64,000 nucleotides of DNA. Origin: a virus. The notes beneath the pieces are model-generated. The model saw only the letters and a program-made list of their open reading frames with translations, was not told the DNA's origin and ran no database searches. The DNA lies in IMG/VR virus record IMGVR_UViG_3300045256_000753, positions 37,638 through 101,637 of that record. One strand, written 5' to 3'. Positions 27,072-57,086 of this stretch are shown piece after piece. Made by a program: the position numbers and the translations under genes. Every line of letters starts with the position of its first letter. The stretch's first letter is position 1.

Positions 27072-27153
27072 CGATGTACATCTGGGTTTGGATTTGCACG
27101 ATGGAAACTACCGCGATCCACATGCTGTCTTGTCTGATTCGATTCACATCTGA
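27072..27153 (-). promoter_or_regulatory. Conserved box-hairpin-box leader element, copy 1
   Basis: Shares GAATCGAATCAGAC and CCAAACCCAGA (minus strand) with 47002-47081; a bulged hairpin lies between the boxes. Confidence 0.7.
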
Positions 27154-27215
27154 GCCGTCGCCACTCATGGCGATGTGGCAGATAACGGTCTGCCAGCCGC
27201 CTAACTCGTTCCGGA

Positions 27216-27929
27216 TCAGACCGGGACGATGAGGTTCGAGTTCGCAGCGAAGCGGAGCGAGTAGCCCTTGCCCGGGCCACCGCTCGCCGACGTGGGCGCG
27301 AGACCCGTGTCGATGAACTCGCCGTACTGCGAGATGCCGTCGATGATGTCGGTGACGGTGACGGAGGAGTTCTCCGCGACCATCGCCGCATCCGACGTGA
27401 ACGAGGCGCTGTACGAGTTGAGCCAGCAACCCTCGAAGAACGTGAGCAGAGCGCGCGGCGTCACGATCGGGTTGTCGGCCGACGTCGGACCGTTGGTCAC
27501 CGTCGCCTGAATCGAGGTGCCGTTCGGATCTTGCAGGACCGCGATCTCCGAGAAGACGAGTTCTTGCTTGATGTCGAATGGCCAGCGGTGGTGACGGAGC
27601 GAACGAGCGAGGCCGTCGATGCCGCCCTTGTAGCCGAGGACCTGGAACAGGTTCGCGGTGTAGAGCAGCGTCTTGTTGAGGGTGAGCGTCATCGGCTCGG
27701 TGACGGACGGAACGAGTTCCGCGATCTGGTCACCGAAACCCACCCCGCGCACCGGGTCGATCGTACGCGACTCGTCGAAGCCGAACTCCGAGATGACGCC
27801 GATCTGCTGGAAGGCTTGCGCGTTGGTCGCGTAGCCGTAGACCTTGTTCTTTTGAGAGACCGCCGCCCTCGTGTTGGGGGCAGTCCCCATACGGTAGATG
27901 TAGTTGGCGGTCGAGACGTTGCTCGGCAT
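27216..27929 (-). CDS. Tail tube protein
   Basis: IGVISEF...ESRTIDPVRGVGFGDQIAELVP...PFDIK...FEGCWLNSYS resembles contractile-tail tube proteins; precedes chaperones and tape measure. Confidence 0.8.
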   Translation of the reverse strand: MPSNVSTANYIYRMGTAPNTRAAVSQKNKVYGYATNAQAFQQIGVISEFGFDESRTIDPVRGVGFGDQIAELVPSVTEPMTLTLNKTLLYTANLFQVLGYKGGIDGLARSLRHHRWPFDIKQELVFSEIAVLQDPNGTSIQATVTNGPTSADNPIVTPRALLTFFEGCWLNSYSASFTSDAAMVAENSSVTVTDIIDGISQYGEFIDTGLAPTSASGGPGKGYSLRFAANSNLIVPV

Positions 27930-27947
27930 GGCTTACCCCTTCTCCCC

Positions 27948-28784
27948 TCAGACCTTTGCGCTCGCGAACATGGCGTGAAGGTGTGACGACTTCTCCCCGA
28001 GCTTCGAGAGCGCGGTCTTGGCTTCCGGCTCCTTGAACTTGGGGTGGCTGACGATGAGGTTCACGTTGCTCGCGATCTTGTGCAGATCGCCCTTCGCGCG
28101 GGCAACGTCGAATTTCTTGCCGGCGAGAACGAGCTGGTCGATCTTCTCCTCGGTCATGGTGACCTGGGCGAGGATCGCGTTCGCCATCTTGGCGTGCTCG
28201 TCCGAAGCCGTCATCGAGCGGGCACTCTGGCCGCTCGGGAGCTTCTCCGGGAGTCCGTAGTAGGACGAATTCTGGCTCTGGTTGCCGTAGACCGAGGGAC
28301 GACGCAGCCAGGCAACGAGATCGTTGAGGCGATCGATGTCGTCCTTCATCGACTGGGCCGAGATCGAGCCCGCACCAGCCTCTTTTGCGTGCTGCTGGAG
28401 GTTGGCGATCTGAGCCTCGATGCGAGCCACCTGGTTCGCAATCGCATCCTTCGTGAACTGTTCCGCGTCAGCCATGGTCCTGCCTTGCCTGTGTGAAGGG
28501 GTTCGATTTGACGGGAGAATAAGTGGAATAGAGCGACCAGACGACCACCTGGCTCGGTGGGGCTTGAGAAGCTCCCACATTCGCTCCAGATCGACCGTCA
28601 ACATCGATTCCCCCTCGGCCAAAAAGGTGTCCAGCGTCTGTTTTGCGGACCTGGACCCCACCGCCAGCTCGGTCACAAACTTGAGGACCGAGACGGACCC
28701 GAGCATGTACTTGACCCCATCGGGGGTCCGTACCCAATCGCTAAGCCCATCCGTACCAACGGTGACGAGCGCCTTTTGGGCCAT
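27948..28784 (-). CDS. Hypothetical protein (278 aa), possible internal start at MADAEQ
   Basis: Clean ORF; helical C-terminal half; GCAGGACC precedes an internal ATG. Confidence 0.65.
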   Translation of the reverse strand: MAQKALVTVGTDGLSDWVRTPDGVKYMLGSVSVLKFVTELAVGSRSAKQTLDTFLAEGESMLTVDLERMWELLKPHRARWSSGRSIPLILPSNRTPSHRQGRTMADAEQFTKDAIANQVARIEAQIANLQQHAKEAGAGSISAQSMKDDIDRLNDLVAWLRRPSVYGNQSQNSSYYGLPEKLPSGQSARSMTASDEHAKMANAILAQVTMTEEKIDQLVLAGKKFDVARAKGDLHKIASNVNLIVSHPKFKEPEAKTALSKLGEKSSHLHAMFASAKV

Positions 28785-28808
28785 CGCCTACGGAGGCACA
28801 CGAAAGGA

Positions 28809-29645
28809 TTACACGCGGACGAGCACCTGGATCAGGTGGCTGCTCAAGATGGTCGTGCCGTCCTCCGGATACAGCCAAAGGCCATTCGTTTTCCAGCCGG
28901 GAAGCTCCCCCATGGCGGTTTCCATCTCGTTCAGGATCTTTGCCGCCATCTCCAAACGGAACGGCACATGGGGCCCCTTCCGCCCGATCAAGACATTTTG
29001 GCGCCCGTCGATGACGGGCCCAAAGAGAGCCCCACGGAGGTAGCCCCTACGGAAGAGGCTCTCCCACCCATCTTCGAACGAGCCCTTCGTCTCGGCAACA
29101 ACGAAGCCCTGACTCCCTGCATCGATCAACCACGGCTCGGGGGGTTCCTGGCCAAGGTGAGGAAGTTGGCCCGTCTCGATATAGTCCTTGATGAAGTCCA
29201 CGCAATTTTCCAACCGAGAATCGATCTCGGATTGGACAAGGCCGTTGGGAAATTGGGTCCGCAGGAATTTGAGGAGGCGTGACAGCTCCGGATCAACGTG
29301 AGCGTGCCCAATGATCCCTCGTCGGTGCACGAGATCGGTCGCGGCAACGAAAGCTGCCGTTGCCGGCATGTCGATGAAGCGCCTGTTGCTCGCCAACACG
29401 ATCGCCACGAGAGTGTCCACGTCCCGAATGCCTTTCGTCGCGAACACCGGCGGCATGGGCCGTCCCTGAATCAGATCGTCGAAGAAGCTTGTGAGGGCGC
29501 CTGGGTCTGCCCAACCGAACTCCTCACCGTGATGCTCGTAGACGTAGAGCGATGAGTCGCCCGTTTGTGCCCTTGAGGCACCCGTCTCGAAAGAGATCGC
29601 GTTCGGAACCACCCCGGATAGAGAATCATCGAGGATGATCTGCAT
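28809..29645 (-). CDS. DHH-phosphoesterase-like protein (divergent)
   Basis: YEHHG and IRDVDTLVA motifs, plus a C-terminal LNEME...GW pattern seen in DHH-like proteins. Confidence 0.45.
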   Translation of the reverse strand: MQIILDDSLSGVVPNAISFETGASRAQTGDSSLYVYEHHGEEFGWADPGALTSFFDDLIQGRPMPPVFATKGIRDVDTLVAIVLASNRRFIDMPATAAFVAATDLVHRRGIIGHAHVDPELSRLLKFLRTQFPNGLVQSEIDSRLENCVDFIKDYIETGQLPHLGQEPPEPWLIDAGSQGFVVAETKGSFEDGWESLFRRGYLRGALFGPVIDGRQNVLIGRKGPHVPFRLEMAAKILNEMETAMGELPGWKTNGLWLYPEDGTTILSSHLIQVLVRV

Positions 29646-29653
29646 GAGGGTGC

Positions 29654-31111
29654 TTACACCCGTGCCCTATGGACGTGAGGTCGTGGGAAGCTAGCGAGGT
29701 ATTCGGGGTGGATGCGAACGAGACGATTTTTGGTGTCCTCCCACGGAAGAACAGCCAAGTCCGATGGGGCTCCTCGGTGGTCTTGAGCCGCAACGTATGC
29801 TGCGAAGTTATCCCAGACAATGCGGGGGATTGGGATTGTTCCGTTCTCGTACCCCCGGATTACGGAGAGGGGTGTATCGAACAGGAGCGCCAGATCCTCC
29901 GGGTCCAATTGCACAGCTTGCCGTAGGAAGACCCATGTTTCCGGCGTAATCTGGCCCCAAGAGATCACGATGCTGGCAGCACGGAGCCTGGCGAGTTTCT
30001 TGTTCGTGTCTGCGAAGTACGTCTGCCCGCGTCGAGTTTTGACTCCGGGGATCAAGGCAACGAAGGTCGTGCCCGTATTCTCCATGGGGATGAAAAAGTC
30101 GAAGAAGCCCTTCGTTCCACGCGGCAGATCGTTAACGGTTGCGTAGAGTCGTGGCGCGGGCGTTTCGGCGATGTCGATCGCATCGCTTACGCGTATGTTG
30201 TAGGTGAAGCTTCCGCTGATCGCAACGTCGTCTGTGACCGAGACGGCATCCGAGATGAAGTAATTCCCGGAAAAGCTCTCAACACGAACGACGTCGGTGA
30301 CCCCCAGCGTGTCCGTGTTCCGACGAATGAAGTCCACCTGACGAGAACCGTCGTCGGTGGCGTTCATACTGTCTGTCAGGGCCCGACTATTGTCCGTGGA
30401 TGTCCGGAGTGCGTCCGTCGCGGAAAGGGCGTCTGTCGATGTGCGGTTGAACGTAGTGCTTCGGCTGACACTATCGAGGATCGTTGCGGTGTTCGCATCG
30501 GTCCTGGAGAAATGGGCCGTTCGCTGTGTCGAGTCCGTGACGGTGGCAGTATCTTGCTGCGGTCGGTTGAATTCCCTACCTGCGACGGCGCTGTCGGTGA
30601 CCGTCGCTGAATCAGTTGCACTTCGAGCGTACACTGCCGAAGTAAGAGTGTTGTCCGAAACGTCGAGATCTTCAGTGACCGAGATCTCGATACGCCCAGC
30701 AATTTGAATTGTGAGCGAATCCGTAATCGTGGCGCTGTCCGTTACCTTCTTGGCGTACTGCGCCGATAGGGCGAGGGCATCGGTAACAGACGGGCTGTCC
30801 GAAAGCTTCCGGTTGTACCCCAACGATGTCTTTGGGGTGTCGCTGACCGAAAAGCTGTCCGATGTGCTTCGGTTGAATTGCGAAGAGATCTTGGTGGTGT
30901 CCGTGAACGACGCGCTGTCCGTCGCCGCCCGGCTGTTTTGTGCGGCGATCTTGGTCGAATCCGTAACGGCTACGCTGTCCGATGCGAGCCGGTTGGCTTG
31001 CAATGATCGGGTCGTAGTGTCCGTAACAGAGACCGAATCGCTCAGAGAAACGCTATACGCTATCCCGAGCGCGAGATCTTGATTGAATAGGATCCAGACG
31101 CCACCGGGCAT
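29654..31111 (-). CDS. 20-aa Ser/Thr/Asp repeat protein fused to an MqsA-like HTH-XRE domain
   Basis: Roughly 14 repeats of R..(S/T)DS..VTD; C-terminal FLRQAVQLDPEDLALLFDTPLSVIRGYENG is HTH-XRE-like. Confidence 0.7.
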   Translation of the reverse strand: MPGGVWILFNQDLALGIAYSVSLSDSVSVTDTTTRSLQANRLASDSVAVTDSTKIAAQNSRAATDSASFTDTTKISSQFNRSTSDSFSVSDTPKTSLGYNRKLSDSPSVTDALALSAQYAKKVTDSATITDSLTIQIAGRIEISVTEDLDVSDNTLTSAVYARSATDSATVTDSAVAGREFNRPQQDTATVTDSTQRTAHFSRTDANTATILDSVSRSTTFNRTSTDALSATDALRTSTDNSRALTDSMNATDDGSRQVDFIRRNTDTLGVTDVVRVESFSGNYFISDAVSVTDDVAISGSFTYNIRVSDAIDIAETPAPRLYATVNDLPRGTKGFFDFFIPMENTGTTFVALIPGVKTRRGQTYFADTNKKLARLRAASIVISWGQITPETWVFLRQAVQLDPEDLALLFDTPLSVIRGYENGTIPIPRIVWDNFAAYVAAQDHRGAPSDLAVLPWEDTKNRLVRIHPEYLASFPRPHVHRARV

Positions 31112-31193
31112 GGTCTAGCCTAACCTTCGACCTGTAGGCCGTCGAAGTTTCCCGGATGAGTTGTGGCGATCTTGGGCACGACTTCCTATCCCC

Positions 31194-33566
31194 TCATTCG
31201 AAGTCATCAAACCAAATGAAGAAGCGCGTGGAATTGTGGGTCGTGATCTGAGATACGAAGTCCGAAGGCGTTGAGATGCTTTCGGAAATCGTACGCGACC
31301 CAATGTACCGGCGAACAACAGCATCGTTGATGCTGATGGCTTCACTAATCGTGCGGCTGCCAGAGAATGCACGAGTGATCGCATCAGAAATGCTGACCGA
31401 TTCCGAGATCGTTCGGCTCTGCACGAGAGCCCGAGCGATCGAATCGCTGGGTTGGGTGATGCTCTCACTGACAACCCGTGCTCCTGCGAACGCACGAGCT
31501 ACGGAGTCTGAAGGCGTCGTGATGCTCTCAGAGATCGAACGCGCCGAGACCACATGCCGCGCAATGGCGTCGGTGGGGGTCGTAACGCTCTCCGAGATGT
31601 TTCGGAATCCCGTGAACTGTCTGGAGATCGCGTCGCTGATCGAGATGGATTCGGCGAGCGCACGAGAGCCCGCGAAGGCTCGTGAGATTGCGTCGCTGAT
31701 AGAGACGCTCTCGGAAATGGTGCGCGCATTGACCGCTCGACGGGTGACCGCATCGCTAACGGAAACGGACTCTGCGATTGTTCGGGCACCAGCAAAGGCT
31801 CTCGCGACCGAATCGCTGACGGACACGGATTCGGAGACCGTCCGGGCGCCCGCAAAGGCTCGCGCAATTGCGTCTGAGGGTTGAGTGATGCTGTCGGAGA
31901 TTGTCCGAAGGAGCTGGGCCGTCCGGGCAATTGCATCGGAGGGCTGGGTAATGGATTCAGAAACGGTCCTCGCTCCAGCGAAGGCACGGGCAACTGCATC
32001 CGAGATGCTGACGGTTTCGCTTAGCGCACGTGACCCGGCAAAGGCACGCGTAAGGGCATCGGAGGGTTGCGTGATCGATTCAGCAACCGAACGGAAATCG
32101 GCGACCGCACGAGCAACGACATCACTCGGTTGTGTGATGGAGTCGGAGATGCTTCGAGAGCCGGCAAAGGCACGGGTGATGGCGTCCGAGATGCTGATGC
32201 TCTCGCTAATTGCTCGTATTGCTGCATACACACGAGCAACGGAATCGGTCGGTTGGGTGATCGAGTCGGAGATCGTTCGGTTCGCGGCAACGACCCGAAC
32301 GAGCGTATCACTAGGCTGCGTGATGGAGTCGGAGATGGCGCGAGAGGCAGCGATTGTTCGAGCAACGGCGTCCGAGACGCTGACGCTTTCACTGAGTGCA
32401 CGAGAGCCAGCAAAGGCACGCGTAAGGGCATCGGAGGGTTGCGTGATCGAGTCGGAGATCGTTCGGTTCGCGGCATCGACCCGAGCGATGGCATCACTCG
32501 GCTGCGTGATGGAGTCAGAGATCGTTCGACGCCCGACGAATTGCCGGGAGATAGCATCCGAGATCGATATCGATTCGGAAATGGCGCGTGCTCCGACGAA
32601 GACACGAGACACGCCTGTGACAGCAGAGGGGACGACAGCGAGGAGGGTCGTCGCCCAGTCGTCGTTGCCCGTGGAGGTCGCTTGGTAATTGCCGGTCGCG
32701 CCTTGGGAGGCGTTGGCGATCTTGCCGAGATTCCAGATCGTTCCGAATGACGCGAAGGTATTGTCTTGGCCAGGCCCCATGAAAGTAAACGATGGGAAGT
32801 CCGACGAGATCGTGGCGTTGTTGTCTCCCAGCCAGAACAAGAAAAGCCACTCGTTGGCCTTCGTGGTCGTGAGGCCGTTCGCTGTCAATGTGCTGGAGAA
32901 GCCGCTGTTTGTCGTTGGTGCTCCGGCGCCTGAGTCGATTGGACTGACCGAATCAGCCCCACGCAAACAAACACACGCGATACCAACTCCAAAAGTGCTC
33001 GTCGGAGATGTGCTGAATGTGTAGTTCGCAGCCGGGGAGCCGGAGAGCTGAAGGATGTAGACTGCCGAAGAGATCGCGTCATCGCCCCCGCTCGGGTGAT
33101 CGATGCGTGTACCGGAAACAAGTGTCGCGCCAGTTGGGGGCGTGACGGTCGCACCAGTTTGGTCATACCAGGCGACGAAGAAGACGAGAAGATCGCCGGA
33201 CTGAGCGCCCGCAGGAGTGCTTACGACACCTGGGTTTGTCGCCGTCGCAGCCGAAGTCGTCATCGACCCGACTTGCGTGATGGTCGAAGAGCCGCTGCCA
33301 TCCGTAGGAGTCGTAATCGACTCCGTGATGGTGCGCGCATAGTGAGCGATCCTCGTGATGGCATCGCTGATGGAAATCGATTCGCTGATGGTCCGTGCAC
33401 CAACGAACCGACGTGCGATGGCATCCGAGATCGAGATCGACTCGGTAATCGTTCGGGCGCCGACAAATACTCGTGAGCTTACCGAATCGGACGGAGTGGT
33501 GATGGACTCCGGGATCGATCTTGTGTAAGACTGCGCGCCACCTAGAAGAGCGAGTAGGAGCGACAT
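31194..33566 (-). CDS. 20/21-aa repeat fibre protein with an inserted globular beta domain (790 aa)
   Basis: About 26 repeats of RTISESISISDAITRAFAGS / RTISDSITQPSDAIARxxxxx; ~220-aa insert (GAQSGDLLVFFV...YTFS). Confidence 0.8.
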   Translation of the reverse strand: MSLLLALLGGAQSYTRSIPESITTPSDSVSSRVFVGARTITESISISDAIARRFVGARTISESISISDAITRIAHYARTITESITTPTDGSGSSTITQVGSMTTSAATATNPGVVSTPAGAQSGDLLVFFVAWYDQTGATVTPPTGATLVSGTRIDHPSGGDDAISSAVYILQLSGSPAANYTFSTSPTSTFGVGIACVCLRGADSVSPIDSGAGAPTTNSGFSSTLTANGLTTTKANEWLFLFWLGDNNATISSDFPSFTFMGPGQDNTFASFGTIWNLGKIANASQGATGNYQATSTGNDDWATTLLAVVPSAVTGVSRVFVGARAISESISISDAISRQFVGRRTISDSITQPSDAIARVDAANRTISDSITQPSDALTRAFAGSRALSESVSVSDAVARTIAASRAISDSITQPSDTLVRVVAANRTISDSITQPTDSVARVYAAIRAISESISISDAITRAFAGSRSISDSITQPSDVVARAVADFRSVAESITQPSDALTRAFAGSRALSETVSISDAVARAFAGARTVSESITQPSDAIARTAQLLRTISDSITQPSDAIARAFAGARTVSESVSVSDSVARAFAGARTIAESVSVSDAVTRRAVNARTISESVSISDAISRAFAGSRALAESISISDAISRQFTGFRNISESVTTPTDAIARHVVSARSISESITTPSDSVARAFAGARVVSESITQPSDSIARALVQSRTISESVSISDAITRAFSGSRTISEAISINDAVVRRYIGSRTISESISTPSDFVSQITTHNSTRFFIWFDDFE

Positions 33567-33579
33567 GCTCCCTCACTCC

Positions 33580-35049
33580 CTAAATCCAGTAGCCGTCGAA
33601 CGTGACCAGGAAGGTGATGACGCCAGAGGTAGTCACCGTTCCGACGTTCTTGGCACAGATCGCAATGAATTCACCCGGGTTGACTGGGATCGGCGAGTTG
33701 AAAGCCATGTATTGGCCGCTGGCCGAACCAATCGTACCAACGGCGGCGGCAGCGGCGAAAAGCTCCATGCCGATTGGGATGCGGCGTGGTGCCTTTGCTG
33801 TGTTGGTAACGAAGCTTCCGGATTCGGCCGTCGCCATCGAGACAGCCGTGTGGCCGTATGCGAGAGAGTAGAAGTATTGAACGGGACCACCAACGAGGAC
33901 GGTGGTCACCATGCTTTGAATGCGGACGCCCGTGCACATGAATGTGCGAGGTGTCTGCGTAGCGCTGCCTGCCGGGTTCTGGTAGCTGCAAACGATCCCG
34001 TCCGTGTTCGCCGCCAACGTCGGCAACGTCGCAAATTGACCCCCAAGACCGGTACCCAGGGCGGCGGTGGTATTGGTCATCGCTGCACCCGCGCCAGGAG
34101 CAAGCGAGTTCGTGTAGAGAGCAAGCGAACCCATGGTGCCGCCCGAAAGACCTTGACCAGCTCCTTTCTGGAGGGCCATCTGGTGCGAGTAGGGTGCAGC
34201 GAGCTGGAGGGACCGCTGGATTACGCTACAGTCGCTCCATTTGAGCTGCATCTGCGGCGAACCAGAAACCGTGTTGGAGTTGCGGTACTGAACCGCAATG
34301 GGCAACGCCGTGGTCGCAAACGGCTCGCTCTGCGCTGCCGGAGTTGCGAGCGTCCCGTACAGCACGGGACCGGTACCCATGTCGATCCAGAACTCCGTGC
34401 TTCCTTCACCAACGATGATGATGAAGGCGGATACAGTGTTGGGCGTGATCGTGGCCAGCAGGACGCTAGTAGTGGTTTCCACGCCGTTGTAATTGATGAC
34501 GCCGATCAAACCGGCCGACGAATAACGGTAGTAGATACCATCCGTGGGTGCTGCAACGGGCGAAGTAGCAGGCAAGAACAGTCCCGCCTCCCAGACCTCG
34601 TTTGTCAATGCGGCAGCAGTGATTTGAAGCGACATCGACACACGAAGCGACGCGCCGCCGAGGAGCTGAAAGTAGCGCCAGGAGGAGAGTGCACAGCCCG
34701 TTGCCGTCGTGGCCGTCGAGTTCGCGTTGAACAAGACCGAACCGCTCGATTGAGTACACGTCATCGTGGTGAAGACGTGCTTCCAGACACCCGTGTCCTG
34801 CGCGGTGGCGTTGAACGTGTAGTCGAAAATCGGCGTGTCGAGGCCGACTGCCAGGCGTCGCTGGGAGGTGATCCAGGGACTACGACGCAGAGAGGAGCCC
34901 GTGATGGTCCCAGGATCTTGCTCAATGAGCGCTAGCGCGTAGCCGGCCTGCGCCGCCGTTGTGGGCAGATTCGCCTTGAGGTTGTTGTTTGCATCAACCT
35001 CTGCGACGTTCCCGCTAGTATTTCCTTCAATGCGGATGCCCGACATCAC
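33580..35049 (-). CDS. Putative fibre/receptor-binding protein with lectin-like core (489 aa)
   Basis: Beta-rich; WEAGLF...DGIYYRY...EFWID pattern resembling concanavalin-like phage domains. Confidence 0.55.
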   Translation of the reverse strand: MMSGIRIEGNTSGNVAEVDANNNLKANLPTTAAQAGYALALIEQDPGTITGSSLRRSPWITSQRRLAVGLDTPIFDYTFNATAQDTGVWKHVFTTMTCTQSSGSVLFNANSTATTATGCALSSWRYFQLLGGASLRVSMSLQITAAALTNEVWEAGLFLPATSPVAAPTDGIYYRYSSAGLIGVINYNGVETTTSVLLATITPNTVSAFIIIVGEGSTEFWIDMGTGPVLYGTLATPAAQSEPFATTALPIAVQYRNSNTVSGSPQMQLKWSDCSVIQRSLQLAAPYSHQMALQKGAGQGLSGGTMGSLALYTNSLAPGAGAAMTNTTAALGTGLGGQFATLPTLAANTDGIVCSYQNPAGSATQTPRTFMCTGVRIQSMVTTVLVGGPVQYFYSLAYGHTAVSMATAESGSFVTNTAKAPRRIPIGMELFAAAAAVGTIGSASGQYMAFNSPIPVNPGEFIAICAKNVGTVTTSGVITFLVTFDGYWI

Positions 35050-35056
35050 TAACCTC

Positions 35057-35347
35057 TCAGTTCCAAACCCAACGAACTTGGAATGTGCTCGTCAACCGCC
35101 ACGAACTCTCCGCAAAAATAGTGAAACCCGTACCAGCAACAACGCTTCCGCACGTCAGCTTGATCGGCACGAGCTTGTGCTCTTCTGCATTGTGACCGGT
35201 AGCTCCGGACACGGTGGAATCTGCCATCATGAAAGCCTCGGCAAATGAGCCCGATAGAATGCCCGTTTGTCCGGTCACCACCACGCTCGTGACGTTGGTT
35301 CCCGGAGCGGCACCGAAATCGATGGTGGCAGTTCCTGTTGCTCCCAT
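35057..35347 (-). CDS. Small fibre-associated protein (96 aa)
   Basis: GTATIDFG...AGTGFTIFA...FQVRWVW beta pattern; tight packing with neighbours. Confidence 0.6.
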   Translation of the reverse strand: MGATGTATIDFGAAPGTNVTSVVVTGQTGILSGSFAEAFMMADSTVSGATGHNAEEHKLVPIKLTCGSVVAGTGFTIFAESSWRLTSTFQVRWVWN

Positions 35348-35351
35348 GGCT

Positions 35352-36185: not shown

Positions 36186-36685
36186 TTCGACTTCCCCTTC
36201 ACCTTGAAGTGCGTGTGGAGATGATCGATGTGATCCTTGTCCGTGGCGGGCTCCATGTAGGCCTCCACGTGGGCATCGACATCTTCTGCCGCGATGTTTT
36301 CGGCGGCAACGTGTGGTGCAAGTGCTGCACGGAAGAGAGCCTCGTCGGGCCCGTCATCGTGAACATCGACCTTGGAGACCCACGAACGATGGGCGTGATG
36401 GGGCATCACGTGCTCCGAGAGGTAGAACGCAATTGCCTGTTTCCGGGTCAATTCGCGCCCGCCTTCCGGACGAGTCTTGTCGTGAATGATCTTGGCGATC
36501 ACCTGCGACTCGGGGATTTGGATCTCGGTGTGCGTGTCCATCTCTTTAGTCACACGCATGAGCCAGCCACCCCCACGACCGGCAGGTTTGACCTTTCCGG
36601 AGGCGATGTCGGTCTGAGTCACAACGACATCCTCGGGGACCGGATCCCAATCGTAAAATTTCGAGTGATGTACAACGATCCGCAT
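36182..36685 (-). CDS. Hypothetical protein (167 aa)
   Basis: Clean ORF overlapping the next start. Confidence 0.6.
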   Translation of the reverse strand: MRIVVHHSKFYDWDPVPEDVVVTQTDIASGKVKPAGRGGGWLMRVTKEMDTHTEIQIPESQVIAKIIHDKTRPEGGRELTRKQAIAFYLSEHVMPHHAHRSWVSKVDVHDDGPDEALFRAALAPHVAAENIAAEDVDAHVEAYMEPATDKDHIDHLHTHFKVKGKSK

Positions 36686-36710
36686 AACAGCCTCTTTCTA
36701 GCGAGTGTGA

Positions 36711-37379: not shown

Positions 37380-37380
37380 C

Positions 37381-39519
37381 TCACAGCTCCTCCTGCCAAT
37401 TGATGGCCCCAAACATCGTAAGAGCGCCGTTCGCAGGAACGGGTTGGATCGCAAGAACTGCGTATGTCGAGGTCCCGTCGATCAATGATCCGAGGCGAAC
37501 TGAGCTTGCCAATTCGGCGTTGACGGCTGCCGACTTGTTTGTGGTCGCATACTCGCTGTAGACTTGGGTAGCCCCAGCATTGACAGTCAAGAGATTCGAG
37601 GCGGCCGGAAGCGCCACCTCCACGGCTGAATTGGAGACTGGCGAGAATGAGAGGGCAGCCCCTGCGAAGGTGAAATCAGTCGGGCGCCCGATGTAAACCG
37701 CCAGGCGGAAGGAGGCGGCCGTCGTCGTGCTGATCACCGATGCACTCTCCAAGGTGATGTCGGCCATCTGCTTCGTCGATTGCAGGCGCAACACCAGGAG
37801 CGGATAGATGTTCGTGTCGTTTCCTGTTGTAATGCTGGTGGCTCCTCGGTCGGCCGAGACCGTGATGCCGGTCGCGTTCTGCCCTCCCTCGGTGATGACG
37901 GTCGTGCACACGTGGACGATGGAGCCCGCCGCACCGGTCCCGGAGTTCGAGATCTCGTAACGTAGCGGAAGGTTCGGATTCGAGATGTAGACCGAGGTCA
38001 CCACGTTCGCGTGGTTCGACTGGTGCGCCACAATGATTTTTCCGCCGATGATGAAGCCGAAGCGCACACGACCGGTGCCAAGCCACTGGTAATCGATGAA
38101 GAAGATCTGCTGCTTTGTGATGTCGAGCGTGAGTCCGCTTGCACCAGTGCCATCGAGTTTATCGACGTTCCAGTTTGCCTGCGTCGTAACGGTATCGACG
38201 CCGCCCTTTCGTTCGACAAACGAAACGGTCGTTCCGGACACCTGCCAGAAGAGTCCGTTGTTCCCATCGAACTGGCCCATCCGGCGAGTGTTTCCCGCCT
38301 GACCCCCTTCGGGCGCCAGCGTTCCCGTCATAACGATCAACTGAGATTTGCCGGGTTCGTAATTGAACCTACGAATCGTCTGGCGAACGCGTGTCCCTGC
38401 TGTCGTGTTCGAGACCGCGAGCGTCGAAGATGCGTTCGCATTGCTGTACGTCGAGGACGTTCCGGACCCGGACGTTTGAGCATCGTCCCAGTAGAAGGAC
38501 TGTGCGTCGATGAGCTGTTTGGAATCGAAGAGCGTTTGGGGGTTGGAGACTCGAAGTCGGCCGGACGCGTCCAGATTGGCGGAATCTGAGTAGCTGACGG
38601 CACCGGAGATCGTGCCCGAAACTGCGACCGTACCCGAGACAGGAATGGCCGATTGATCGTTGGCAATGACGACGGGTGCGGAACCCGCCATGGCCTTCTG
38701 GCCAAGCGTTCCAAGACGAGCAGTAATCGTTGCGTCAGCGGCTCTTGTTGCCAGCGTCGCTTCTGTCGCCGCTCCCGTGGGCAACGCACTTGCTTTGACT
38801 GCAACATCCAGTGCCTGGTGATCGGCATCGATCGACGTGCTGGTAACGTCGGCGGCCGTCGTAGCCCCTTTGGCACCACCGCGTGCAATCGATTTCTGAG
38901 TCCCATCCGTCTGATGGGTTGCGAGGTTGTCCAGATCCGTCTTCGCTGCGGAGAGGGTTGCGTCTTTCGCGAGCCCCGTCTCGACAGCGGGGATCATATT
39001 CGAGACTGCCACCGTCCCGCTCACGGGCTGGATGACACCAGACCCTTCCACCTTGATGGCGTCGTCGTTGCCGAAGGCGACGGGATGGAAACTGCCGTCT
39101 GGTTTTTGGGCATGAAGGATCGACTTCACGACCTCAGTCGGTTCGTTGCTGTCGATCGGTTGAGAAAGAAAGCGCGACAGACGCGTAGACGTCTGTCGGT
39201 GAAACATCGTCGTGAGACGGAACGCCGTTTGGGCTGTGCCGCCATTCACGTACCGCACACGGAAGTACGGAAGGATGGCGCGAAGAATCGTCGGGACGAG
39301 TGTTGGACCCGTAAGCACCAACGGAACCGAAACGTCCCAGTTGGTACCGTCCGGGCTGAACTCGAAGTAGAGCGTTCCAGGGGCGTTGCTAGGAGAGCCT
39401 GCAACGTTGATGTCGATCTCTTGGAACGACAACATCGTGTCGGCCGCGCCCGTGAACATCTCATTGGCGCCAAGCGCGTTGGTCGTCGTATTGTTTTTGC
39501 TGACGAAGAGCTGCGTCAT
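37381..39519 (-). CDS. Fibre/spike protein with lectin-like C-terminal domain (712 aa)
   Basis: DASGRLRVSNPQTLFDSK...YEPGKSQL...IDYQWLGTGRVRFG is a widespread phage virion domain; QPVSGTVAV stalk motifs. Confidence 0.7.
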   Translation of the reverse strand: MTQLFVSKNNTTTNALGANEMFTGAADTMLSFQEIDINVAGSPSNAPGTLYFEFSPDGTNWDVSVPLVLTGPTLVPTILRAILPYFRVRYVNGGTAQTAFRLTTMFHRQTSTRLSRFLSQPIDSNEPTEVVKSILHAQKPDGSFHPVAFGNDDAIKVEGSGVIQPVSGTVAVSNMIPAVETGLAKDATLSAAKTDLDNLATHQTDGTQKSIARGGAKGATTAADVTSTSIDADHQALDVAVKASALPTGAATEATLATRAADATITARLGTLGQKAMAGSAPVVIANDQSAIPVSGTVAVSGTISGAVSYSDSANLDASGRLRVSNPQTLFDSKQLIDAQSFYWDDAQTSGSGTSSTYSNANASSTLAVSNTTAGTRVRQTIRRFNYEPGKSQLIVMTGTLAPEGGQAGNTRRMGQFDGNNGLFWQVSGTTVSFVERKGGVDTVTTQANWNVDKLDGTGASGLTLDITKQQIFFIDYQWLGTGRVRFGFIIGGKIIVAHQSNHANVVTSVYISNPNLPLRYEISNSGTGAAGSIVHVCTTVITEGGQNATGITVSADRGATSITTGNDTNIYPLLVLRLQSTKQMADITLESASVISTTTAASFRLAVYIGRPTDFTFAGAALSFSPVSNSAVEVALPAASNLLTVNAGATQVYSEYATTNKSAAVNAELASSVRLGSLIDGTSTYAVLAIQPVPANGALTMFGAINWQEEL

Positions 39520-39959
39520 GTCAACTCCGTCACGCGAAGACTGCCAGTTGCGGTTTCCCAGATCGCGCGCACCTCACCGGAGAAGTGAAAGGGAAGCTGC
39601 CATCCCGTGTGCGCTGCAACGATGACGGTGCAGTCTGCCAACGTGACCGCGACGGTTCCCAATCCGATGTGGACTGCGGAATCGGAATCGTTGTAAAAGA
39701 AGGCTCCGCGCCTTCCCGCATTCGCAGCCAAAACGAGCGTGTCTGAGATCGCTGCGGCGATGCTGGTCCGTGCTGCCGTAGACGCATAGTCCGTGATCGT
39801 CGGGAACGGATTTGTTGCCGTGACCGGACCGCCGTTTGTGCCGTGCGGACCCGTGTAGATCTTGCTGACGGGAAGTTTGACTCCGCCGCCGACATCCTCG
39901 GTCGCGATGACATCGCCGCCGGCTACCGTTGTGGCATTGAGTGTTGTGTTATCGGCCAC
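39516..39959 (-). CDS. Small beta-sandwich virion protein (147 aa)
   Basis: LAANAGRRGAFFYNDS...GEVRAIW...LRVTEL pattern. Confidence 0.6.
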   Translation of the reverse strand: MADNTTLNATTVAGGDVIATEDVGGGVKLPVSKIYTGPHGTNGGPVTATNPFPTITDYASTAARTSIAAAISDTLVLAANAGRRGAFFYNDSDSAVHIGLGTVAVTLADCTVIVAAHTGWQLPFHFSGEVRAIWETATGSLRVTELT

Positions 39960-39967
39960 GACTCACC

Positions 39968-40177
39968 TTAATTCGTGACCGATTGCGGCACTTCCTCGGG
40001 CGACTGCACGTTCCGGCACAGAGGCATTGCGCAAATGCGTTGGGGGTCGCCGTTCGCGTCCGGCACGTGCTCCTTCGTCTCGCGTCCGCACTTGACACAC
40101 GGATGCCTTGCGGCGGTCGGCGTCTGGGAGACGCCCGCCTCGGCTCGATCCGTGGCGGAGACGCGATCGTTGCTCAT
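39968..40177 (-). CDS. Small zinc-finger protein (69 aa)
   Basis: MSNDRV start overlaps the upstream TGA; CVKC...CAMPLC. Confidence 0.5.
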   Translation of the reverse strand: MSNDRVSATDRAEAGVSQTPTAARHPCVKCGRETKEHVPDANGDPQRICAMPLCRNVQSPEEVPQSVTN

Positions 40178-40668
40178 GTCACCCGTGCCGTGTAGGTGAT
40201 GCGGAGCTTGTCGGCTGTCGTCTTGTTGACCGCCGTGAAGGTGCTGCGAGACAGGATCGACCCACCAGGGCTCGTGTGCTGGTTGGCGAGAATGACCTCT
40301 TTGATGTTCGTCGCCGACTTCGTGCCCGGACCGCTGGGGTAGCTGATGATCCATTGCATCGAACGGGTGCCCGCGAGAAGGGACTTCGAGTCCACCGTCT
40401 TGAGGGTCCCGGTGATCGGTGTCGTCAGGTTCGTCTGTCCGGAGTTCGCCGCCTGAGAAGACGTCCCGATGCGCATGAAGTTCCACGACTTGCTGTTCAA
40501 GCCGGACGACATGCGCCAGATCTGACGCTTGCCCGTGTTGACGATGAGATTCGGACTCCGGCGATACTCGATGACCTCCGGGCCGTTCTTTCCGTCTCGG
40601 ATGACTTCGATCTCGAACCATCCGCCCATGTCATCGATGGTCTCTGTAACGGCCTTGGGCGCGCTCAT
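40174..40668 (-). CDS. Tail-collar/fibre subunit-like protein (164 aa)
   Basis: NLIVNTG...MRIGTS...QTNL...IKEVIL...SRSTFTAVNKT..DKLRITYT, a common phage structural family. Confidence 0.65.
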   Translation of the reverse strand: MSAPKAVTETIDDMGGWFEIEVIRDGKNGPEVIEYRRSPNLIVNTGKRQIWRMSSGLNSKSWNFMRIGTSSQAANSGQTNLTTPITGTLKTVDSKSLLAGTRSMQWIISYPSGPGTKSATNIKEVILANQHTSPGGSILSRSTFTAVNKTTADKLRITYTARVT

Positions 40669-42452
40669 GTCGATATCTCCTGTTTGATCAATGCAATGTT
40701 GTTGGTGGCCTCCTCTACAGCTTCTTTGGGAGAACCCTCAGGCAGAAGTTCAAGGACCCTTGTGGCCCAGTGCAGAGCGCGCGGTGCGTCCCCCAAGGCG
40801 GAGTAACACATCGCCAACCGTTGAGCTGGGATGTAGCTGTAGAAACTCAGATCGATCCACCAAAGCGTGAATGGGGGGTGCCCGATCATGGTGGACGCAT
40901 AGGTATAAAACTGGAGAGCTTCCTCGTACTTCTCCGCGTCAAAGGCGAGATCCCCAAGCCACACCCAATGGTCCGTGCGACTCCAATCGTCCCGCACACA
41001 GTCGAGTAGAATCTCTCGTGCTTCCGCGTACTCTCCGCGACCCGACAACATCTTCGCCAAGATGAGTCGCGTCTGGTAACGCATCGGGCCATTCTCGCGA
41101 TGGACCGCCAAGAACTCTTTGAGATACTTAATGGCGCGGTTCTCGTCATACTCGCGCCACTCGCTCCCAAGATACCAAAGGCTCAGGTGGCTGTTGTTCG
41201 CCATCCAGTCTTCGAGGAGCGTCTTCCGATTCTGAATTTTTCGCTGACCCTTGCGAGCCAGTTCTCGTTCATGGTCGCGTTCGTGCAATGTCTTCACTTG
41301 GGGAAGACGGATGACGTACGCCTTCTCCGGGAAATGGAGATCGTTGTGCGTGGCCCGCTGGAAGTAGATGGTGTCCGGCTGATTGCGGAACAACCACGGA
41401 TACCCCCACTGCTGGCCTTGTCCCGTGCGCAGCACGAATCCAACAGAGGCTTCCTTGGGTAGAAGCTCTCCAAGGCGCAGAAGCGTGTCTTTCCCCTGCC
41501 ACAGGCGCTCGTGGCCTTCCGTCATGAACACCCAGTCGCCCGAACAACGTCGGATGCACTGGTTGCGTGCATGCGAGAAGTGAAACCCGCCTTCGGGAAC
41601 CTCTTCTCCCGGGGGCCCGCGCAGCTCCGTGAGATCGAACACGATGTCCGCGTACTTCTCCGCGATCTCTCTCGTGTTGTCCGTCGTTCGCGGATCAATG
41701 CCGATGACGATCTCATCGGCGATACCCGAAAACGAAGCGAGGACGTTCTCGATGTCCTTGCCCTCGTCACGCACCGGCATCGTCATGCTCATCTTGAAGT
41801 TGTTCGGTTTTGGCAGGTTGCAGACTGCCAATAGGAAAGCCGGCTGCATCCTCGGGTCGGCTTTCGGTCCGAGCACCTCGACCCTGACGTCCGTGAAAAA
41901 TCTTTGCAGGTATCGCTTGAACTCGATGGCCGTGAACTTGCGCGTATGCTGCGGTTCTTCGTCGGGCCCGAGGCGATCGTTTGGAACCGAGAAGAACGCA
42001 CACGTGCACTTCGACGCGACGTTCATGAGCGTGTCTCGGGCGCGATCCGAGAGGTGCTCCAACGTTTCTGTCGAGACCATCACGAGAGGCCCGTCGTCTT
42101 CGCTACGGAGGAAGTCGAGCGGCAGAGGATCTTCGAGATTCACCTGGTGGGTTGTGAATCCGTTGCTCCTCGCTTGGGCGAGGGCTTCCGCACTGTGATC
42201 GAGGACTTCCGGAAAGCAGCAACCCTCATCACGAAGACGTGCTGCAAGAATTCCGACGCCGCCCCCAACATCGATCACACGAGCGTTCCGAGGAATCAGC
42301 TCGATGATGCGATCGTAGACCTCTTCGAGAGCACTCTTGCGCCAGCTCCCTGTGCCCTCGGCCGCCCAAAGACGATCCCACTCTGTTGAGGAGTTCGCGA
42401 TTCGCGCGGCTTCCTCAACATTCTGCGGGCGAAATGCGTCCGAGTTCATCAT
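40665..42452 (-). CDS. SAM methyltransferase - GT2 glycosyltransferase - TPR fusion
   Basis: VIDVGGGVG and ETLEHL (class I MTase); MPVRDE...DEIVIGID..TTDNT...FSHARN...GDWVF (GT2); helical TPR-like C-terminus. Confidence 0.85.
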   Translation of the reverse strand: MMNSDAFRPQNVEEAARIANSSTEWDRLWAAEGTGSWRKSALEEVYDRIIELIPRNARVIDVGGGVGILAARLRDEGCCFPEVLDHSAEALAQARSNGFTTHQVNLEDPLPLDFLRSEDDGPLVMVSTETLEHLSDRARDTLMNVASKCTCAFFSVPNDRLGPDEEPQHTRKFTAIEFKRYLQRFFTDVRVEVLGPKADPRMQPAFLLAVCNLPKPNNFKMSMTMPVRDEGKDIENVLASFSGIADEIVIGIDPRTTDNTREIAEKYADIVFDLTELRGPPGEEVPEGGFHFSHARNQCIRRCSGDWVFMTEGHERLWQGKDTLLRLGELLPKEASVGFVLRTGQGQQWGYPWLFRNQPDTIYFQRATHNDLHFPEKAYVIRLPQVKTLHERDHERELARKGQRKIQNRKTLLEDWMANNSHLSLWYLGSEWREYDENRAIKYLKEFLAVHRENGPMRYQTRLILAKMLSGRGEYAEAREILLDCVRDDWSRTDHWVWLGDLAFDAEKYEEALQFYTYASTMIGHPPFTLWWIDLSFYSYIPAQRLAMCYSALGDAPRALHWATRVLELLPEGSPKEAVEEATNNIALIKQEIST

Positions 42453-42619
42453 ATACAGTTACTTCTGTACTTGGCGCTCGGATAAGAGGATCCCCCACGA
42501 CCGGTGGAACTTGGCAGCGTCTTGACATTTACCGAGCGGAAAATTTCATTGGAATTCCAACTAAATGGACGTTCCAAATTGCCCCGTTGACAAGGACTTG
42601 ACCGTGCCTGTCGGTTAAA

Positions 42620-42652
42620 CGACAAGAGGCGCAAAAGCAGCGCCTCTTGTCG
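42620..42652 (-). terminator. Hairpin terminator after the sheath gene
   Basis: Perfect 13-bp stem CGACAAGAGGCGC/GCGCCTCTTGTCG with a 7-nt loop, followed by TTTAA on the minus strand. Confidence 0.75.
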
Positions 42653-42669
42653 GGTTCGGGTCAACGAAC

Positions 42670-45600: not shown

Positions 45601-46971
45601 CGTCGGAATCTCGGGCAGGAGGAACTGCGTCGCCGAGACCGTGGCCGGGATCGTCGTGGTGTCCGTCACGGGCGTGCATGCCGCGAGGAACATCTTGTCA
45701 TCGACGAGCGTCGTGCCGATCTGGCCGCCGAGACCCGAAACGCCATCGAACGGCGCGGCACCGGGGCTGGTCTTCGTCGCTTGCGTGACGACACCGGTAC
45801 CCCAGTTGACGAGCGAGACATCCGGAGTCGGATTCGCGATCGTGAAGTCCGCACCCTGGATGTAGTCGTTGCGCTGCGGCGAGATGCCGGCGCGAATGAC
45901 CTGCGTGACGTTCGAGTTCGGGAGGTAGTCGAACGTTTGCTGCCAGGTGTTGGCGAAGTATTGGATGCTGACCGTGCTGCCCGGAGCCGGCGCGAACGGC
46001 AGCGTGACGACGCCGTTCTTGCCATCGACCGCCGAAGCAACGACCTGCACGTTGTTGACCTTCACGACGACCTTGGTCGGGTCCGTGGTCGTGATGCCGC
46101 CGCCGCTGCCATCCACGATCGGGATGTTGAAGAGACGGAACTGGGCGTTGCGCGACGTCTGCGCACCGGACGAGAAGCCGAGCGGGCCGTTCGCCGTGCC
46201 GGAGCCGATCACGATCGATTGCGTGGCGGTGAGCAGGATGTGGTTGAGTCCCGCGTTGTCCACGAAGACGGTCGCGAGGAGGTTCGGGATCGCCGCCGCC
46301 ATGATGGCGGAAACGACGCCGGCCGCCGTGAGCGAGCCCGGGGGCAGGGTGACCGTCGCCTGGACGCCGTTGACCGTCAGAACGAAGTTGTCGTTCGATC
46401 CGGCCGTGATGAGGAAGGGCTCGAAGCCCGGGCTCGTGAGGGTCGCGTTCGTCGAAGTGACCTGGCCCGAAACGTCGTCCGTGAAGCTCGTGTCCCCACG
46501 GTGGAAGTGGTAGGTCGCGCGAACCGTGTCGGTCGGCTGCGTCGGGATCTGGAGTCCGACGAGACCCTTGGCGCCTTGCACCGAGGCAACGGCCACCGGG
46601 GTCCCGTTGACGGTCACCGTCACCGAGCGGGTGTCGTTCGTCGTGCGGCCGATTCCCTGGCCGTCCACGATCGGGAAGTTCTTGACGCGGAACTGCGTGA
46701 GCTGACCGTTCTGCGCACCGAGAACGAGGTTGTTGGGGTTGGTCGCATCGACCACCCAAGAGAGGCTGACGTCCTCGTTGACGATCAACTCGTCCACCGT
46801 GGCCGAGCTGCCACGAACGAGTTCGATGTCGTCTTGCTCCAGCTCCTCTTGGCCGACGCCAATGATGACCGGGATGCGAAGACCAGCCACCAAGTTGGAG
46901 ACGTTGGCCTCCGTCAAGGTGCGGGTGTAAACGCCGGGCGGAACGTACGTGACAAACGGGCCGAGAGCCAT
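42670..46971 (-). CDS. Tail sheath protein with multiple inserted domains (1433 aa)
   Basis: N-terminal YVPPGVYTRT; C-terminal IRQGLTT...FVGTK...YAPIFPLEYLVLTF sheath signature. Confidence 0.92.
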   Translation of the reverse strand: MALGPFVTYVPPGVYTRTLTEANVSNLVAGLRIPVIIGVGQEELEQDDIELVRGSSATVDELIVNEDVSLSWVVDATNPNNLVLGAQNGQLTQFRVKNFPIVDGQGIGRTTNDTRSVTVTVNGTPVAVASVQGAKGLVGLQIPTQPTDTVRATYHFHRGDTSFTDDVSGQVTSTNATLTSPGFEPFLITAGSNDNFVLTVNGVQATVTLPPGSLTAAGVVSAIMAAAIPNLLATVFVDNAGLNHILLTATQSIVIGSGTANGPLGFSSGAQTSRNAQFRLFNIPIVDGSGGGITTTDPTKVVVKVNNVQVVASAVDGKNGVVTLPFAPAPGSTVSIQYFANTWQQTFDYLPNSNVTQVIRAGISPQRNDYIQGADFTIANPTPDVSLVNWGTGVVTQATKTSPGAAPFDGVSGLGGQIGTTLVDDKMFLAACTPVTDTTTIPATVSATQFLLPEIPTTGNGRDTPLGLPLYNSVTNGRMDLVSNRPDLVTVYAGRNLRDALGRAAIPVIAVDGPNRVITLQRPVPPDYTVFATFWYNNIVDDTYILTCTVPGPIGSGQYTVFSSLRNANLFEVRFGTKSGFAQTVQWPRGVENIPDAFHTGNGTPVAEIVTITFSQSAPENAAFTNRNAEPYSFFAPYSATWVTVVNGGSQTTTLSNQAKGFLVGGHVTPIQTGPDTGKITIPASPNNAFNVQIDGVTVATINLTAGNRTPAQIVSEINTGIDANAAFVGTAPNNLCSSVQIGGPGTGDIIFIIKSYSTPAALPGGFDAVSTVKILQGTVEHTLGFKTFQAAAGTPGAINKPATLLSGLAGPYNITAGLNDKLLLRVNGTDYSVTLPAGAAVSAASVVTAIGAVSGLGGVPSSGTLGNANHVRLTSLTNDANSSILIQNGSANAVLGFTQNQFASQALVTAQEVVDELMATGGFAAGAVAYVDALNSKNYITIESLTTGASGSSIGFAASANSAFNTSTGIGLTPGVDGDVGEDAHDQYTVSSSSPNGSAGTGVPGQTYTDAVTGLRFTILPASTGGYTPAGNFTLLVSPTFHVDPSVPRLSIPGIEMIVSNTVNVAVNDTGVIQTFNPGGLEPAVGDFYFISYRYKKQDFSTRIFQTLKTIEANFGATSPENRVSLAAYLAILNGAVLIGITQVLKVPNTNQASDQSFINAIAGLATPLPGNVKPDILVPLATSTAVYSFLTNHCEVQSNIRNQAERMGFIGFASGTSPTSAQTIAKSLVSSRIVAFYPDSSVVTLTDETGQSFQSIIDGSFFGAAVAGAVVAPSVDVATPYTRRRLQGFTSIPRILDPVEATQTAVAGITLLEDLGNGFLRIRQGLTTNMASILTRLPTVTQISDFVQQQSRTILDSFVGTKFLQSRTTEVVVTMTGLFKSLVQAEIVAAFTGLSAQIDPNDPTILNFQAFYAPIFPLEYLVLTFNLRANI

Positions 46972-47001
46972 CCGAATCTCCTCAGCAGGTGGGCGAAAAT
47001 C

Positions 47002-47081
47002 CGATCTGCGTCTGGGTTTGGGCTAGTTGCAGGTTACGGACTGCAAGCCGTGGGTCTGATTCGATTCGGATTTGGATCTGA
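47002..47081 (-). promoter_or_regulatory. Conserved box-hairpin-box leader element, copy 2
   Basis: Same boxes as 27072-27153; hairpin GGCTTGCAG...CTGCAACTAGCC; ends about 30 nt before the sheath ATG. Confidence 0.7.
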
Positions 47082-57079: not shown

Positions 57080-57086
57080 GGTGGAC

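Follow-up and report, generated by a model that had tools for sequence, protein, structure and literature searches.

Periodic repeat arrays in two tail-gene leaders of an uncultured jumbo phage suggest a new cis-regulatory RNA

Results

Two tail-gene leaders share a repeat architecture

The 64,000-nucleotide (nt) stretch of DNA analyzed here (the window) is the right-hand part of one 101,637-bp viral contig, IMG/VR record IMGVR_UViG_3300045256_000753 (positions 37,638 to 101,637), on which almost all genes lie on the minus strand and the G+C content is ~60%. On that strand, a gene for a 237-amino-acid (aa) tube-like virion protein is followed by one for a 378-aa chaperone-like protein, and a gene for a 1433-aa tail sheath protein is preceded by a leader of its own. 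The leaders ahead of the chaperone-like gene (element 1) and of the sheath gene (element 2) each carry two arrays of short, closely spaced units on either side of a hairpin. The same layout is found at both positions in relatives, and in element 1 a covarying long-range helix encloses the module next to a conserved hairpin over the translation start. Based on these features, we propose that the two sites belong to a new kind of cis-regulatory RNA.

A sequence-only reading of the window had singled out the two leaders for sharing a 14-mer and an 11-mer, one copy of each, in the same order and on the coding strand, and the words are indeed arranged in this way. The 14-mer GAATCGAATCAGAC occurs exactly twice in the window (27132-27145 and 47054-47067, minus strand), with no third copy there when up to 2 mismatches are allowed. 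The 11-mer CCAAACCCAGA also occurs exactly twice (27081-27091 and 47011-47021, minus strand), and neither exact word is found elsewhere in the 101,637-bp contig. The spacers between the words, 40 and 32 nt, likewise agree with the lengths given in that reading. A 14-mer with a nearby 11-mer turned up 27 times in 200 shuffles of the window, a chance rate of about 0.1 per shuffle, and the shared word pair alone is only suggestive. Chance is excluded by the placement of both copies, which sit on the coding strand within two of the contig's largest intergenic regions, and above all by the relatives, which have this architecture at each of the two homologous positions.

The shared sequence is thus real, but the two words are not the discrete boxes for which they had been taken. 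They are stretches of periodic c-A-R-A-Y arrays (R, purine; Y, pyrimidine) that are identical between the two copies of this genome; the copies of the nearest relative, G001, share much less. The exact two-box pattern has no match in IMG/VR, and blastn of the region against GenBank phages returned none, so that the words are private to this genome and the unit type alone is conserved. The near-hexameric composition of the flanks, which had also been pointed out, holds up: RAY-to-RAY spacings of 5-6 nt make up 45-49% in the leaders as against 12% in the sheath coding sequence.

Repeat units are conserved across relatives and the central hairpin is not

We compared 40 loci around sheath homologs (53-76% identity) and 80 around homologs of the 237-aa protein, corresponding to ~30 distinct relatives for the sheath leader and ~48 for the tube-downstream leader. 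Nearly all of the former have the array-hairpin-array layout ahead of the sheath gene, and most of the latter have it downstream of the tube-like gene. The relatives that carry it are uncultured soil jumbo myoviruses of ~450-480 kb, and more distant ones have shortened versions of the element (e.g. L069, L073). Tunturiibacter phage Tunturi_5, the nearest cultured phage, shares the gene order and also encodes a zinc-ribbon homolog ahead of its sheath, yet it lacks the arrays.

The unit consensus is c-A-R-A-Y, that is, an R-A-Y core usually preceded by A and C and followed by 2-3 nt of free spacer (logo, C-A-R-A-U). CAGAU, CAAAU, CGAAU and CAGAC are among the units seen, with GAUGAA/GAUGAG in more distant clades. 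Each element has two arrays, with 3-8 units in each at intervals of 5-6 nt, which brings the total to about 7-12. In a 20-sequence alignment of tube-downstream leaders (A1), every fifth position along array A is an invariant A, and CCCAGAUGUAGAUC is the best-conserved block of array B. A strict period-5 pattern (RAYNN x5) had no match in the records of five relatives; the real period mixes 5 and 6. The signal is strand-specific, in that the reverse-complement unit is not enriched in the leaders, and no complementary array occurs on either strand. Array scans of the 101-kb contig and of 112-kb and 452-kb relatives show that the arrays are essentially confined to the sheath and tube-chaperone leaders. 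An array-like stretch that overlaps a start codon (53526-53551) was set aside, as it looks like chance.

The hairpin between the arrays behaves differently from the arrays themselves. A hairpin of unrelated sequence occupies the central position of element 1 in relatives, a non-homologous hairpin occupies that of element 2, and sequence, length and loop differ completely from one relative to another and from one copy to the other. In this genome, the two spacer hairpins predicted in the sequence-only reading both fold in isolation (Table 1); the first is kept in the minimum free energy (MFE) fold of the whole leader, and the second is replaced there by other pairing.

As a separate observation, start-stop codon pairs (AUG-UAG, AUG-UGA, AUG-UAA) recur within the arrays; AGAUGUAGAU, AGAUGUGAAU and AAAUGUAAAU are examples. 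Such pairs are seen in many loci, among them L008, L010, L020, L035, L048-L063 and at 27148-27143 of the window; they are not universal, and the sheath leader of this genome has none.

A covarying helix encloses element 1

The chaperone-like gene behind element 1 starts at the ATG at 27015 and not at the GTG at 27027, the mechanically assigned start of the open reading frame (ORF), because its N-terminus, M-G-x-[IV]-S-A-K-K, is conserved in relatives and a Shine-Dalgarno (SD) sequence lies upstream. In folds of 20 single leaders, a long-range helix, which we call P1, repeatedly closes the module and is followed by a second hairpin over the SD. The sequence of P1 changes from clade to clade and its complementarity is kept (Table 1). 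A 20-sequence MAFFT alignment has 92% of P1 cells paired and 3-4 covarying pairs, with three pairs swapping AU and GC in 7-9 sequences each; when the P1 partners are slid by 1-3 columns, only 31-67% are paired. Unguided, RNAalifold returns a 7-bp P1 core together with a 5-bp SD hairpin.

A covariance model built from the MAFFT alignment (R1) found 13 more after-tube-gene elements outside its seed at E<1e-3. In the 33-sequence R1 alignment, 97% of P1 cells are paired and 7/7 pairs show compensatory changes; for the SD hairpin the figures are 88.5% and 3/5 pairs. These counts are to be read with the caveat that this alignment was fitted to the model. Across alignments, pairing of the SD hairpin is 81-88.5%. 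P1 is also evident from an alignment-free test, in which cognate strands gave -36.2 kcal/mol on average and non-cognate strands -28.4 kcal/mol; none of 2000 permutations reached so low a value (p<0.0005). A covarying closing helix therefore encloses element 1, and a conserved hairpin covers the SD or start codon of the chaperone-like gene.

The two helices adjoin. The 3' strand of P1 runs on into an anti-SD, CAUCCUC, that pairs with a downstream GAGGAUG, which is the SD or, in this genome, the start codon. The 5' strand opens with GGGUG, GGAUG or GAGAUG, each of which resembles an SD and can pair with the CAUCC of this anti-SD, and the resulting P1 extension (GGGU with AUCC) overlaps the anti-SD pairing by 3-6 nt. 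A switch between alternative pairings that would free the SD is thus possible in element 1.

The sheath leader is predicted to pair with its start region

In this genome, AUCCGAAUC (47063-47071, within array A of element 2) is an exact 9-bp complement of GAUUCGGAU (46970-46978), and in the MFE fold this pairing spans the SD-AUG spacer and the AUG. Folds of the sheath leaders of relatives often pair the 5' flank or the first array A units with the region from the SD to codon 5, as in L017 (GGACCCAG with UUGGGUCC), L026 (GGGGCCGGA with UUCGGCCCU) and L001 (CGCCAUU with AAUGGCG). An alignment-free test of 30 distinct sheath leaders, 5' part against start region, gave -23.25 kcal/mol for cognate and -21.18 kcal/mol for non-cognate combinations (p=0.0002); with codons 2-5 alone, p=0.009. 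These predictions suggest that the 5' part of the sheath leader pairs with the translation start region, a case weaker than that for element 1. The R1 model of element 1 matches sheath leaders weakly (E from 0.006 to 0.7; L035 E=0.006, L040 E=0.008), and this fits shared arrays with different helices.

Table 1. Positions in the 64,000-nt window of the features of the two leaders and their flanking genes, with P1 strands from relatives
Feature	Position	Strand	Sequence and remarks
Element 1, P1 5' strand	27156-27164	minus	GUGGCGACG; pairs with 27046-27054 in MFE fold; covaries in relatives
Element 1, array A	27127-27151	minus	AGAUGUGAAUCGAAUCAGACAAGAC; 5 RRAY units; holds the exact 14-mer
Element 1, central hairpin	27096-27125	minus	GCAUGUGGA...UCCAUCGUGC; in MFE fold; alone -10.7 kcal/mol
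Element 1, array B	27073-27095	minus	AAAUCCAAACCCAGAUGUACAUC; holds the exact 11-mer
Element 1, P1 3' strand	27043-27054	minus	CGUCGCCAU; leads into CCAUCCU, able to pair with AGGAUGG over the start codon
SD and start codon of the 378-aa chaperone-like gene	27013-27025	minus	SD GGAGGA 27020-27025; AUG 27013-27015; conserved N-terminus
Element 2, array A	47054-47079	minus	AGAUCCAAAUCCGAAUCGAAUCAGAC; 5 units; holds the exact 14-mer
Element 2, central hairpin	47021-47049	minus	GGCUUGCAG...CUGCAACUAGCC; alone -9.8 kcal/mol; other pairing in whole-leader MFE fold
Element 2, array B	46999-47019	minus	AAACCCAGACGCAGAUCGGAU; 4 units; overlaps the exact 11-mer
Sheath start region	46969-46985	minus	SD CUGAGGAG; spacer GAUUCGGAU; AUG 46969-46971
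Tail sheath gene, 1433 aa	42670-46971	minus	PHROG tail sheath phrog_2839 (1.2e-26) and phrog_279, C-terminal ~360 aa
Tube-like virion protein gene, 237 aa	27216-27929	minus	directly upstream of element 1; homologs and Atlas leads
Conserved upstream motif	47127-47139	minus	GAUAAAGUGUUGUU; after zinc-ribbon gene; single copy in genome
P1 strands, this genome			5' GUGGCGACG / 3' CGUCGCCAU
P1 strands, L048			5' GGGUGACAGCG / 3' CGCUGUCAUCC
P1 strands, L053			5' GGAUGGCGG / 3' CCGCCAUCC
P1 strands, L073			5' GACGGCGACGA / 3' UCGUCGCCGUC
P1 strands, L077			5' GAGUGGACAAGCGG / 3' CCGCUCUGUCCUUC
P1 strands, L104			5' GACGGCUUGG / 3' CCAAGCCGUU

Neighboring genes and genomic setting

The gene labels of the sequence-only reading are roughly right. 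That of the sheath stands by its PHROG matches; those of the tube-like and chaperone-like proteins are leads from the ESM Atlas, where the 237-aa protein resembles tail-tube clusters and the 378-aa protein has weak tail-assembly-chaperone matches. The 1433-aa sheath protein is ~3x the usual size, the sheath-family match is confined to its C-terminal ~360 residues, and the full length is retained in relatives. The 237-aa protein reaches 94% identity in relatives, and its gene has a G+C content at third codon positions (GC3) of 0.89. Homologs annotated as virion structural protein occur in Tunturi_5 (46%) and as gp180 of Bacillus phage G (27%). An AlphaFold model of the 237-aa protein from 31 homologs was unusable (pLDDT, the predicted local distance difference test score, 35).

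By the tube protein, the nearest isolates are Tunturi_5, whose host genus, Tunturiibacter, belongs to the Acidobacteriota, and then Bacillus phage G, and an acidobacterial soil host is plausible for the phage studied here. CheckV-type completeness values of related records (111,677 bp, 23%; 451,925 bp, 94%) indicate genomes of ~450-480 kb for the clade, which implies that the contig is about a fifth (~21%) of a jumbo myovirus genome of ~480 kb.

The sheath and chaperone-like genes are ~15.6 kb apart in this genome and ~3.2 kb apart in contig IMGVR_UViG_3300035659_000041. The intervening stretch (27930-42669) holds a methyltransferase-GT2-TPR (glycosyltransferase family 2, tetratricopeptide repeat) gene and Ser/Thr-rich fibre-like genes, and resembles an inserted cassette. 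A 339-aa protein (48770-49789, minus strand) matches Volactin (Pfam, actin fold) over its full length at 1.9e-74; its gene belongs to the neck/tail operon, where it has a Dps/ferritin-like gene on one side and the genes immediately upstream of the sheath on the other. Ahead of this actin-like gene, G001 (loci L148-L153, 15500-15565) carries a small array-hairpin-array, AAAUGAAACCCAAAUCAGAUG - GGGUCCCGUUGGGACCC - AAGAUGAAGAGAGGAUG, of which the hairpin and AAGAUGAAUAGAGGA are retained in this genome (49790-49828). Two further small proteins (56696-57115 and 57985-58386, minus strand) match Pfam Gp80, the podophage GP4 fibre I protein, at 1e-39 and 2e-29.

Terminator-like GC hairpins followed by interrupted U tracts (UUGUCGUUU or UUUCCUCUUG) lie at ~42600-42650 and ~58800-58840 (minus strand), after the sheath gene and a 370-aa high-GC3 gene, respectively; a simple terminator scan missed both. 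A hairpin and U tract of like type follow the Tunturi_5 tube gene (L154, 9700-9735). The conserved motif upstream of the sheath leader, GAUAAAGUGUUGUU, is possibly a terminator tail or the 5' part of that leader. As a general promoter, the upstream motif GATAAAGTGTTGTT was rejected: the genome has one copy, and similar T-rich tails follow terminator hairpins.

Discussion

A translational leader RNA with repeat arrays

The sequence-only reading had offered a cis-regulatory RNA, acting either as an antitermination site or as a translational operator that balances sheath against other tail parts. What we find agrees with its broader claim: the element lies in predicted mRNA leaders, is conserved and strand-specific, and has secondary structure with covariation. 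Conservation and stem covariation in related phages, the absence of which that reading had named as grounds for rejection, are both present, the layout at both positions and the covariation in P1. The operator option fits, since the closing helix of element 1 adjoins and partly competes with the hairpin over the SD or start codon, and the 5' part of the sheath leader is predicted to pair with the start region. We give about an even chance to the proposal that both sites are one kind of cis-acting translational leader RNA, probably read by an oligomeric RNA-binding protein.

Under this proposal, an oligomeric or repeat-domain protein would read the evenly spaced A-R-A-Y units, much as TRAP reads its triplets. 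Its binding would shift the balance between the closing helix and the pairing that sequesters the start site, and synthesis of sheath would be tuned against that of the chaperone and the downstream tail proteins. Each subunit would be expected to read one unit because the period is kept, an invariant A is flanked by R and Y, and the spacers drift. The repeat pattern itself is not explained by a helix partner, because such a partner would give covariation and there is no complementary array.

No model of Rfam 15 (4227 models, phage-associated candidate motifs among them) matched the 64-kb window at gathering thresholds, and the two leaders gave chance-level hits only (E>0.7), in keeping with the candidate new element that had been proposed; literature searches likewise turned up no account of such an element. 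The architecture is unusual, and the comparison suggests that in its working the element is closest to the TRAP and HutP repeat operators coupled to SD sequestration. In Bacillus, TRAP sites (the trp leader and the trpG/trpP/ycbK operators) consist of 11 (G/U)AG triplets with 2-3-nt spacers, and TRAP binding is linked to alternative helices, including, at trpE, a hairpin that sequesters the SD. The arrays described here likewise have ~7-12 short units with a fixed purine-A core, free spacers and a 5-6-nt period (2-3 nt between units) in an mRNA leader. Unlike TRAP sites, they lack the 9-11 G/U-first NAG triplets typical of TRAP operators, the units being A-R-A-Y (AGAU, GAAU, AAAU, AGAC); they are split by a hairpin and closed by a covarying helix, and they belong to a phage tail operon rather than to tryptophan genes. 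The HutP site of the Bacillus hut leader has two sets of three UAG repeats ~20 nt apart, with a 7-nt period, read by a ring oligomer in antitermination. Two repeat clusters with a spacer, possibly read by a ring oligomer, would be common to both systems, whereas the 7-nt period, the triplet and the antitermination of HutP differ from the SD sequestration proposed here. In phage Mu, com-mom has the gene of a small zinc-binding protein upstream of a leader that hides the next start site, and Com binds a single site beside one hairpin. A small zinc-binding protein gene also lies directly upstream of a leader here whose structure is predicted to hide the start site, but com-mom has no periodic arrays. 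A conserved helix involving the SD or start codon, the hallmark of an SD-sequestering operator, is present in element 1, and for element 2 such pairing is seen by alignment-free tests only.

Several observations weigh against the proposal, in its structural part or in its call for a protein. The largest covariation counts come from the alignment that was fitted to R1, and single-sequence fold z-scores are modest (-1.9 and -1.5 for elements 1 and 2). In the RNAalifold structure the cores of P1 and of the SD hairpin can coexist, which falls short of demonstrating a switch. For the sheath leader, a candidate helix that would join the conserved AGRGGCCGGA block to sheath codons 3-5 is complementary in many relatives, but its columns show no covariation. 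Predicted pairing probabilities are 0.51-0.54 for the arrays and 0.57-0.60 for the rest of the leader, so that the arrays are not clearly single-stranded. As for a reader, TRAP (PF02081) had no match in the records of four relatives (G000, G001, G003, G004), with Bacillus subtilis as a positive control; these records encode no Hfq family member either, and the small neighboring ORFs have no RNA-binding Pfam domain. The zinc-ribbon protein encoded upstream of the sheath gene, which had been put forward as a partner, was rejected as the binder: it has no relative in the PDB, its homolog is present in Tunturi_5 without arrays, and no link to the element could be shown.

The failure to find a binder among TRAP and Hfq in the four records and among the Pfam domains of the small neighboring ORFs would be expected if the leader worked as RNA alone, with a fixed P1 and SD hairpin that constitutively lower translation of the chaperone relative to the tube, a set rate of sheath initiation, and repeats that form an A-rich, unstructured spacer or a place where 30S subunits or S1 stand by. 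The compatible, adjacent cores of P1 and the SD hairpin, which could stack coaxially, suit such a leader, as do the need for far less chaperone than tube and arrays with 40% A in a 60% G+C genome. A passive spacer would leave unexplained the strict 5-6-nt period, the invariant A, the conserved R and Y and the drifting spacers, as well as the retention of the same unit in two gene contexts across deep divergence, and we consider this explanation unlikely. Distinctly unlikely, in our judgment, is an element of mRNA processing or stability, in which the units, single-stranded and richer in A/U, would let in an endonuclease (RNase E, G or Y) and the flanking helices would shield the sheath or tube segments upstream, so that parts of a polycistronic late transcript would decay at different rates. 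Segmental stability control is common in intercistronic gaps such as the one that holds element 1, right after the abundant tube-like gene with its high GC3, and hairpins do flank the arrays. Cleavage sites need no fixed period, though, and the conserved pairing that involves the SD or anti-SD speaks for control at initiation; the units also do not appear to match the RN↓WUU-type preference of RNase E.

Action on DNA or on transcription fares worse. Many units hold GATC or GAATC and direct repeats suit some DNA binders, so that the arrays might be sites for a late activator or repressor, a GATC/GANTC methylation cluster or part of a late promoter. We regard this as very improbable: repeats every 5-6 bp do not keep in phase with the DNA helix, GATC/GANTC is not kept in many units (AGAUG, AAACC, AAAUG), the covariation favors RNA helices, and the upstream motif is single-copy. 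Nor was a sigma-70-like promoter found near either element, with the proviso that the promoter type of the phage itself may differ. Extremely improbable is processive antitermination as at the N utilization (nut) sites of lambda, in which an N-like protein with Nus factors would be recruited to RNA polymerase for terminator read-through. The box-hairpin-box layout is superficially similar, conserved single-stranded segments flank a hairpin in a phage transcript as in lambda nutR/tR1, and an intrinsic terminator follows the sheath gene. The analogy, which the sequence-only reading had offered as one of its two options, breaks down in detail. Neither intergenic region has a match to the boxA consensus CGCUCUUUA or similar with <=1 mismatch; there is no conserved loop of the boxB type, the central hairpin differing completely among relatives and between copies; element 1 is intercistronic, with no sigma-70-like promoter found nearby; the arrays are not C-rich; and the conserved helices involve SD, anti-SD and start codons. 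The least probable of the explanations considered is a Rho-loading (Rho utilization, rut) site split by a hairpin, like lambda rutA-boxB-rutB. Two unstructured segments around a dispensable hairpin would suit it, and the sheath arrays have more C (24%) than G (18%), but the tube-chaperone arrays are C-poor (C 15%, G 25%) and the conserved feature is R-A-Y rather than YC.

Implications for jumbo-phage tail assembly

Returning to a translational leader RNA with an oligomeric reader, we note a further step that we hold to be rather doubtful: one TRAP-like regulator, phage- or host-encoded, might control the two leaders in opposite directions. Such control is possible because closing of the helix would bury the anti-SD in the tube-chaperone leader, whereas in the sheath leader it would bury the start site. 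If this is true, one factor could switch output between the sheath and the chaperone plus tape-measure-side proteins during assembly of the jumbo-phage tail.

How jumbo phages control structural-gene stoichiometry at the post-transcriptional level has hardly been explored, and covariation backs very few of the cis-regulatory RNAs of phages. The element described here provides a well-defined motif with ~80 natural variants and two contexts per genome, and its periodic signature predicts a specific oligomeric reader. If that reader exists, it would be a second example, besides TRAP and HutP, of repeat-counting RNA recognition, and it would offer a handle on how sheath, tube and chaperone are balanced in giant tails. 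If there is no reader, the element would still add a new family of structured leaders to catalogues of the Rfam type and serve as a useful marker for this clade of uncultured phages.

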